From Escherichia coli (GTDB lineage: Bacteria > Pseudomonadota > Gammaproteobacteria > Enterobacterales > Enterobacteriaceae), in assembly GCF_045037415.1 (NCBI RefSeq), contig NZ_CP173438.1: 64,000 nucleotides of DNA. One strand, 5' to 3'. A model generated the notes under the pieces. That model searched no databases. It saw only the letters and a program-made list of their open reading frames with translations, and was not told the DNA's origin. This document shows, piece by piece, positions 2,582 to 2,710 of the stretch (the first letter of the stretch is position 1; the number at the start of each line of letters is the position of its first letter). The position numbers were made by a program, and so were the translations under genes.

Positions 2582-2643
2582 CCTAAAGAATCAAGACGAT
2601 CCGGTACGCGTGATTTTCTTTTCACATTAATCTGGTCAATAAC

Positions 2644-2672
2644 CTTGAATAATTGAGGGATGACCTCATTTA
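2644..2672 (+). promoter_or_regulatory. Sigma-32 heat-shock promoter of clpB (CTTGAA -35, CCTCATTT -10)
   Basis: CTTGAA at 2644-2649 and CCTCATTT at 2664-2671 match the sigma-32 consensus (CTTGAA, CCCCATnT), about 40 nt upstream of the clpB ATG. Confidence 0.6.
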
Positions 2673-2710
2673 ATCTCCAGTAGCAACTTTGATCCGTTAT
2701 GGGAGGAGTT

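Follow-up and report, generated by a model that had tools for sequence, protein, structure and literature searches.

RyfD, a small RNA already catalogued and ordinary, is encoded between yfiH and clpB in the 64,000-nucleotide stretch of Escherichia coli DNA that we analyzed (hereafter, the window), and it is the same gene as K-12 ryfD and Rfam family RF02768. In the explanation that best fits the evidence, and that we consider probably right, this known RNA is initiated upstream of clpB, is not a product of the sigma-32-dependent clpB leader, and adopts a fold predicted to lock the start of clpB translation. RyfD is already present in Rfam and in ProQ, Term-seq, SEC-seq and TRIC-seq datasets, so the locus has little discovery value; the useful outcome is a corrected description, that of an upstream-initiated, 3′-UTR-like RNA in which the heat-shock promoter of clpB is embedded and the start of its translation is predicted to be locked. 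What is mildly new is the comparative support for a module of promoter, helix and coding sequence, together with the place of the sigma-32 start site within it.

The gap between the two genes, given as 129 nucleotides at 2582–2710 in an earlier reading made from the sequence alone, is exact in the sequence and ORF map: the yfiH stop codon TAA occupies 2579–2581, and clpB begins with the ATG at 2711. Positions 2560–2760 are 100% identical to K-12 MG1655, and, of 5426 complete E. coli genomes, 5425 match the segment 2400–2900 at no less than 95% identity. We converted each K-12 position x on NC_000913.3 to a window position w by w = 2711 + (2734173 − x), which places the K-12 RefSeq ncRNA ryfD (b4609, 'small regulatory RNA RyfD'; 2734153–2734295, on the clpB strand) at 2589–2731 on the plus strand, a length of 143 nucleotides, with the annotation carried over by the 100% identical alignment and joined by an Rfam match and a Term-seq 3′ end. 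An Rfam scan, which had been proposed as a check, found RF02768 (Ysr155_RyfD) at 2592–2730 (+), matching the full model (positions 1–140 of 140) and scoring 125.3 bits (E = 6e-27), where the gathering score is 42. By the ORF map and the K-12 annotation, RyfD lies between yfiH and clpB on the strand common to both and overlaps the clpB start, and the yfiH–RyfD–clpB context is common to 84 Enterobacterales loci. The suspicion that RyfD might be found in the clpB 5′ region was therefore correct, and the span assigned to it, 2582–2710, needs one correction, as the RNA itself runs 21 nucleotides further, into clpB codons 1–7. Between RyfD/Ysr155 (b4609, RF02768) and this locus we found no difference, with sequence, position, strand and closing-helix architecture (as in the Rfam consensus) all alike. 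The ryfD gene has been part of the K-12 annotation since 2005.

Published data show a discrete short RNA, both as a Term-seq 3′ end in E. coli and on northern blots in Yersinia. The Term-seq end, at 2734153 (window 2731), was found in three growth conditions (Adams et al., 2021; PMC7815308, supplementary file 1) and was classed as primary for ryfD and internal for clpB; its scores, 2.6e7 and 7.4e7 among the entries listed, exceed those of neighbouring ends by orders of magnitude, the primary 3′ end of raiA, nearby in the same table, being surpassed ~1000-fold (PMC7815308). The Yersinia homologue, Ysr155/RyfD, is an RNA of 138 nucleotides that was detected by deep sequencing and northern blot and was constitutive with respect to temperature and hfq (PMC3672283). 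In Salmonella, ProQ co-immunoprecipitation placed the RyfD homologue among the most abundant ProQ-bound sRNAs (PMC8136791), and the literature, including a review, describes RyfD as an 'abundant ProQ-associated sRNA'. In SEC-seq it fractionates at high molecular weight, and it has neither an ORF nor an association with ribosomes (PMC9808575). A terminator scan found no canonical intrinsic terminator (a hairpin followed by a U-tract) at 2731, returning instead a weak hairpin at 2654–2668, where the spacer and −10 region of the sigma-32 promoter lie, plus a single minus-strand site, neither of which accounts for the end. The Rho score for this end was only 1.28, where a value above 2 counts as indicative. 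The end falls 3 nucleotides past the long-range helix described below and is followed by ACUAAUAAAUU.

The clpB sigma-32 promoter lies wholly within RyfD, at 2644–2672 (+), with the −35 element CTTGAA at 2644–2649 and the −10 element CCTCATTTA at 2664–2672. The pattern CTTGAA-N13-15-CCNCATNT has its single match in the 64-kb window at 2644–2671, where 0.03 matches are expected by chance, in agreement with the sigma-32 promoter that the sequence-only reading had put in the gap. The promoter itself, CTTGAA-N14-CCTCATTT at 2644–2671, fits the RpoH criteria (CTTGAA, a spacer of 13–15 nucleotides, a CCCCATNT-like −10 element and a start 6–8 nucleotides downstream), its start at 2679 being 8 nucleotides after T2671, with 7 nucleotides between. 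This start, on the plus strand, is converted from the SMRT-Cappable-seq site reported for clpB (operon b2592) at NC_000913.3 2734205, which is labelled 'same' as RegulonDB (PMC6131387, Supplementary Data 2), and it gives a 5′ UTR of 32 nucleotides, near the earlier estimate of about 35. The promoter is kept in 84 of 84 homologous loci, a conservation partly forced by the search pattern, which lay in the −10/leader region. The leader that begins at 2679 has no significant structure (z = 0.12), and its own Shine–Dalgarno sequence has a predicted pairing probability of 0.85. An in-frame ATG at 2699–2701, four codons 5′ of the clpB start and within the Shine–Dalgarno region (ATGGGAGGAGTTATG), is where the program-made ORF list opens clpB; it is almost certainly unused as a clpB start.

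RyfD is not derived from this leader, which had been raised as a possible source. Its annotated 5′ end at 2589 is 90 nucleotides upstream of the sigma-32 start, and the RNA therefore includes the entire sigma-32 promoter in transcribed form, whereas an sRNA derived from the clpB leader would have its 5′ end at the mRNA's own start. Its 3′ end points to the operon upstream: SMRT-Cappable-seq reads that start at rluD (2736065, window 819) and span b2594|b2593|b4609 end at 2734152 (window 2732; PMC6131387), within 1 nucleotide of the annotated end of RyfD. In M9 medium, 10 of the 74 rluD-start reads end at the site and 19 read through; rich medium gave 125 such reads, of which 32 end there, 41 end no more than 50 bp downstream and 2 continue past it (PMC6131387). 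Because its 3′ end is common to rluD–yfiH transcripts, RyfD behaves as the tail of the upstream operon, and part of its transcription consists of rluD–yfiH primary transcripts that end at this same position. In rich medium, where ends are scattered over as much as 50 bp downstream, the pattern would be consistent with transcripts that terminate or decay further on and are then trimmed as far as the helix. Size selection restricted the SMRT-Cappable-seq libraries to RNAs longer than 1 kb, and they are hence silent on a dedicated RyfD start. In Supplementary Data 3 of the same study, the RegulonDB operon b2592 is extended to b4609|b2592, with some long primary transcripts spanning ryfD and clpB (PMC6131387).

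That RyfD might nevertheless come from the sigma-32 clpB transcript as a short product, generated by premature termination or processing in the 5′ UTR and early coding sequence, is an idea that its 3′ end at clpB codon 7 and its sense overlap with the clpB 5′ end would suit, as would the listing of Ysr155/RyfD in the Yersinia study with sRNAs that overlap gene 5′ ends and possibly arise by attenuation or processing (PMC3672283). The coordinates contradict it: an RNA running from 2679 to 2731 would have 53 nucleotides and would lack the 5′ arm of the very helix that defines the 3′ end. The constitutive behaviour of the Yersinia RNA with respect to temperature and the 3′ end held in common with rluD–yfiH transcripts also speak against it, and we regard this origin as very improbable. 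Nor does the sequence leave sRNA and leader indistinguishable, as had been stated; the covariance-model match, the very stable fold with a closing helix that sets both ends, the frozen clpB and yfiH codons and the extended −10 element mark a separate unit of 143 nucleotides.

The minimum free energy of RyfD is −52 kcal/mol, compared with a mean of −31 for shuffled sequences (z = −5.6). Both the minimum-free-energy and the centroid fold close the RNA with a helix of 23 bp, in which a near-invariant, non-coding 5′ arm at 2593–2616 (+) pairs with a 3′ arm at 2706–2728 (+) that comprises the 3′ part of the clpB Shine–Dalgarno sequence, the clpB AUG and codons 2–6. The helix consists of P1 (2593–2604 with 2717–2728) and P1b (2606–2616 with 2706–2716), with the AUG in the middle of P1b, and both annotated ends of RyfD lie 3–4 nucleotides outside it. 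The Shine–Dalgarno sequence (GGGAGGAG, 2701–2708) and start codon (2711–2713), which together span 2701–2713 (+) and were assigned from the sequence, have pairing probabilities of 0.87 and 0.98, respectively, in any transcript that bears the 5′ arm. The folds also contain an anti-Shine–Dalgarno CUCC at 2675–2678 (+), directly upstream of the sigma-32 start and paired with GGAG at 2702–2705; in all 82 distinct sequences the pairs 2675/2705, 2677/2703 and 2678/2702 are kept, and the remaining pair, 2676/2704, is U-A in 72, U-G in 9 and unpaired in 1. The transcribed sigma-32 −35 region forms an internal hairpin, CCUUGA/UUGAGG at 2643–2658 (+), which is present in the fold and in the Rfam consensus structure; 96% of its alignment cells are paired, with no two-sided changes.

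Homologues for the comparison were collected from one genome per species with a pattern that lies in the sigma-32 −10/leader region and does not depend on the helix arms, which yielded 84 clpB-upstream loci from Enterobacteriaceae, Erwiniaceae, Yersiniaceae, Pectobacteriaceae and Morganellaceae. The closing helix is kept in 80 of these 84 Enterobacterales loci. Mapped onto the alignment, the structure is 83.8% paired, as against 39–47% when the partners are slid by 1–3 columns. Counted over distinct haplotypes, the variant positions in the first 11 bp of P1 preserve the pair in 26 cases and disrupt it in 1. The P1 changes are mostly A-to-G opposite U, giving G-U pairs that are valid on the plus strand only. 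On the opposite strand the abundant G-U pairs of the helix would become A-C mismatches, for which reason we rejected both a minus-strand RNA and a DNA cruciform. A compensatory G-C pair is seen in Erwinia psidii and E. mallotivora, where clpB codon 4 has changed synonymously from GAT to GAC. Covariation is nonetheless thin, the helix being mostly invariant and its changes one-sided, with only two compensatory cells in P1. RNAalifold applied to the MAFFT alignment did not recover P1, choosing an invariant local hairpin instead, and pair support for the closing helix comes from explicit pair counting and per-species folding. The hairpin chosen by RNAalifold, CUGGA at 2717–2721 with UCCAG at 2741–2745, would compete with the RyfD closing helix.

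When each was folded by itself, the 80 arm-bearing homologues, from at least four families, had a median energy of −53 kcal/mol, a median z of −6.5 and a Shine–Dalgarno pairing probability of 0.92, and the four arm-less taxa fold at only −26 to −37 kcal/mol. The coding part of the 3′ arm is frozen as well: clpB codons 2–6 (CGT CTG GAT CGT CTT) have a synonymous entropy of 0–0.17 bits, synonymous variation starts at codon 7, which is where RyfD ends, and most later Leu, Ala and Ser codons reach 1–2 bits. Codons 9–12 (AAA TTC CAG CTT, 2735–2746), outside RyfD, also have low synonymous entropy, at 0.1–0.3 bits. The four arm-less taxa (two Providencia species, Klebsiella sp. BIGb0407 and an uncultured Cedecea) keep the clpB sigma-32 promoter and leader and are without both the RyfD 5′ arm and the TGATATAAC box; they also have synonymous changes in clpB codons 4–6 (GAC, CGC, TTA). 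The 5′ arm, the −10 box and the frozen clpB codons thus appear to have been gained or lost together.

The fold has a predicted consequence for clpB. Opening the region 2698–2716 costs 18.0 kcal/mol in every transcript with the 5′ arm, whether RyfD itself, read-through from the RyfD promoter or read-through from yfiH, and for the sigma-32 mRNA, with its start at 2679, the cost is 7.8 kcal/mol. The 23-bp helix and the pairing of CUCC with the Shine–Dalgarno sequence would together lock the clpB ribosome-binding site and start codon, and constitutive transcription from upstream would end as a locked, stable RNA at clpB codon 7, 3 nucleotides past the helix. The sigma-32 start at 2679 lies inside the structure, 1 nucleotide past the anti-Shine–Dalgarno; heat-shock transcripts are without both inhibitory strands and are therefore predicted to be translatable. 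That only sigma-32-started transcripts are efficiently translated is the most economical reading of these energies, and it is a thermodynamic prediction.

More tentatively, the RyfD fold may be a conserved cis insulator, combining a stop at codon 7, a lock on the ribosome-binding site and a sigma-32 bypass, with the same segment serving as a seed for lpp mRNA; we regard this as possible, though short of probable. If the insulator reading were true, one DNA segment would be at once a promoter, an anti-Shine–Dalgarno and insulator, and a trans-acting seed, which would explain both the sigma-32 dependence of clpB despite read-through from a constitutive upstream operon and the invariance of the stretch from promoter to leader across enterobacterial families. 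Alternatively, the structure could be an RNA thermometer that melts at heat-shock temperature and so allows clpB to be translated from upstream-started transcripts; clpB is a heat-shock gene, and its Shine–Dalgarno sequence and AUG are paired, as in ROSE and fourU elements. The stability is of the wrong order: a thermometer is a marginally stable hairpin that melts at 37–45 °C, and the 23-bp helix, the fold of −52 kcal/mol and the opening cost of 18 kcal/mol far exceed known thermometers, for which reason we rejected this candidate. Moreover, most transcripts stop at codon 7 and do not enter clpB, and the sigma-32 start already bypasses the lock, so that a thermometer is scarcely credible here.

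Besides the supply from the rluD–yfiH operon, RyfD probably has a promoter of its own overlapping the yfiH stop codon. The candidate consists of an extended −10 element, TGaTATAAC at 2574–2582 (+), whose last base is 7 nucleotides from A2589, and a −35 element, ATGGCA at 2555–2560 (+), which matches at 4 of 6 positions, is separated by a 16-bp spacer and lies inside the yfiH coding sequence; the promoter is proposed from consensus, position and conservation. Across 79 homologous loci, the four-fold sites of yfiH have 1.7–2.0 bits of entropy up to codon −10 and are frozen thereafter. Across 2552–2582, synonymous sites in the last 9 yfiH codons are held at GCA in 79 of 79, AGT in 75 of 75 and CTG in 75 of 76, and the gene ends with the rare Ile codon ATA (66 of 67) and the stop TAA (79/79); the non-coding CCT directly after the stop is kept in 75 of the 79 loci. 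A sigma-70 scan of 2300–3000 returned no promoter, using a model that requires T at the last −10 position and is thus blind to TATAAC. Part of RyfD transcription would accordingly come from a constitutive sigma-70 promoter with the extended −10 TGaTATAAC and a start at A2589. The very large Term-seq signal, set against the 74–125 reads that start at rluD, likewise suggests that a local source of greater strength exists. The frozen yfiH codons could have another cause, namely an RNA element (an outer helix with clpB at ~2747–2758) or an RNase E site. When 2545–2765 is folded, an outer helix forms between the frozen yfiH UGGCAAG at 2556–2562 and CUUGCCG of clpB codons 14–16 at ~2752–2758, with no covariation. 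We also considered TGGCAA...TTGGC, in the yfiH 3′ end, as a sigma-54 promoter and rejected it for its wrong spacing.

A role in trans is suggested by interactome data. A 2025 TRIC-seq preprint reports a strong, specific RyfD–lpp interaction with pairing predicted to the lpp 5′ UTR, and ProQ RIL-seq links RaiZ, lpp and RyfD. In our duplex-energy analysis, which agrees with the preprint, the RyfD stretch UUAAUCUCCA-GUAGC at 2670–2684 (+) is complementary to lpp mRNA positions +1 to +16 (GCUACAUGGAGAUUAA). Including the flanking CCUC/GAGG, the duplex reaches −24.5 kcal/mol, an energy that only 2 shuffled targets in 2000 and 10 genomic 45-mers in 8482 attain; the value comes from a local analysis, full-length RNAduplex having given an artificial extended duplex. 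Positions 2670–2684 are invariant in all homologues, an invariance that the search pattern partly imposed, and within the RyfD fold the lpp-complementary stretch is partly sequestered by the clpB Shine–Dalgarno region.

Both the promoter and the trans function would be dispensable if RyfD were a nuclease-resistant 3′-UTR remnant, left when the rluD–yfiH transcript is cut after the yfiH stop, with the conserved structure acting only in cis as a transcript-end or insulator element before clpB; this account departs from the one that we favour solely by denying the promoter and the trans function. It draws on the rluD-initiated primary transcripts ending at 2734152, on the AU-rich, single-stranded CCUAAAGAAUC just 5′ of the stable helix as a plausible RNase E site, on published start-site data that, for RNAs longer than 1 kb, contain no start at 2734295, and on literature in which single deletion and overexpression of RyfD gave only mild phenotypes. 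Against it, an extended −10 element stands exactly 7 nucleotides upstream of the annotated 5′ end, and the conserved rare ATA followed by TAA is hard to explain through a cleavage site alone. The Term-seq signal, so much larger than the rluD reads would lead one to expect, suggests a stronger, dedicated source, and the RyfD–lpp interaction in TRIC-seq is specific, with a complementarity that is statistically unusual. We therefore consider the remnant account unlikely and retain the reading in which RyfD has its own promoter and an activity in trans in addition to its upstream supply.

In its organization, RyfD resembles 3′-UTR-derived sRNAs with an internal promoter (type I, DapZ, MicL) and RaiZ in that its 3′ end is common to the upstream mRNA. 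The final codons of the upstream gene hold its candidate promoter, as in the DapZ and MicL class, and its association with ProQ is that of ProQ-bound 3′-end RNAs such as RaiZ. Unlike these RNAs, it has no canonical Rho-independent terminator at its 3′ end, which falls within the coding sequence of the next gene, and it holds that gene's promoter and ribosome-binding site. RNAs of the 5′-UTR or attenuation type (Adams et al., 2021; PMC7815308) are likewise in sense orientation and end early in the downstream ORF, but RyfD does not begin at the downstream gene's own start site, and ryfD, clpB and 2734153 were not found in that study's table of 5′-UTR and ORF-internal 3′ ends (PMC7815308, supplementary file 3). 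Elsewhere in the window, the other Rfam matches at the gathering score include AsrC, antisense to rseC, at 28804–29635 (−), rncO at 32418–32632 (+), OhsC at 36044–36120 (−) and GlmY at 45319–45466 (+), and StyR-44 matches at 7508–7616 (+), inside the rrn operon at 5728–10745.
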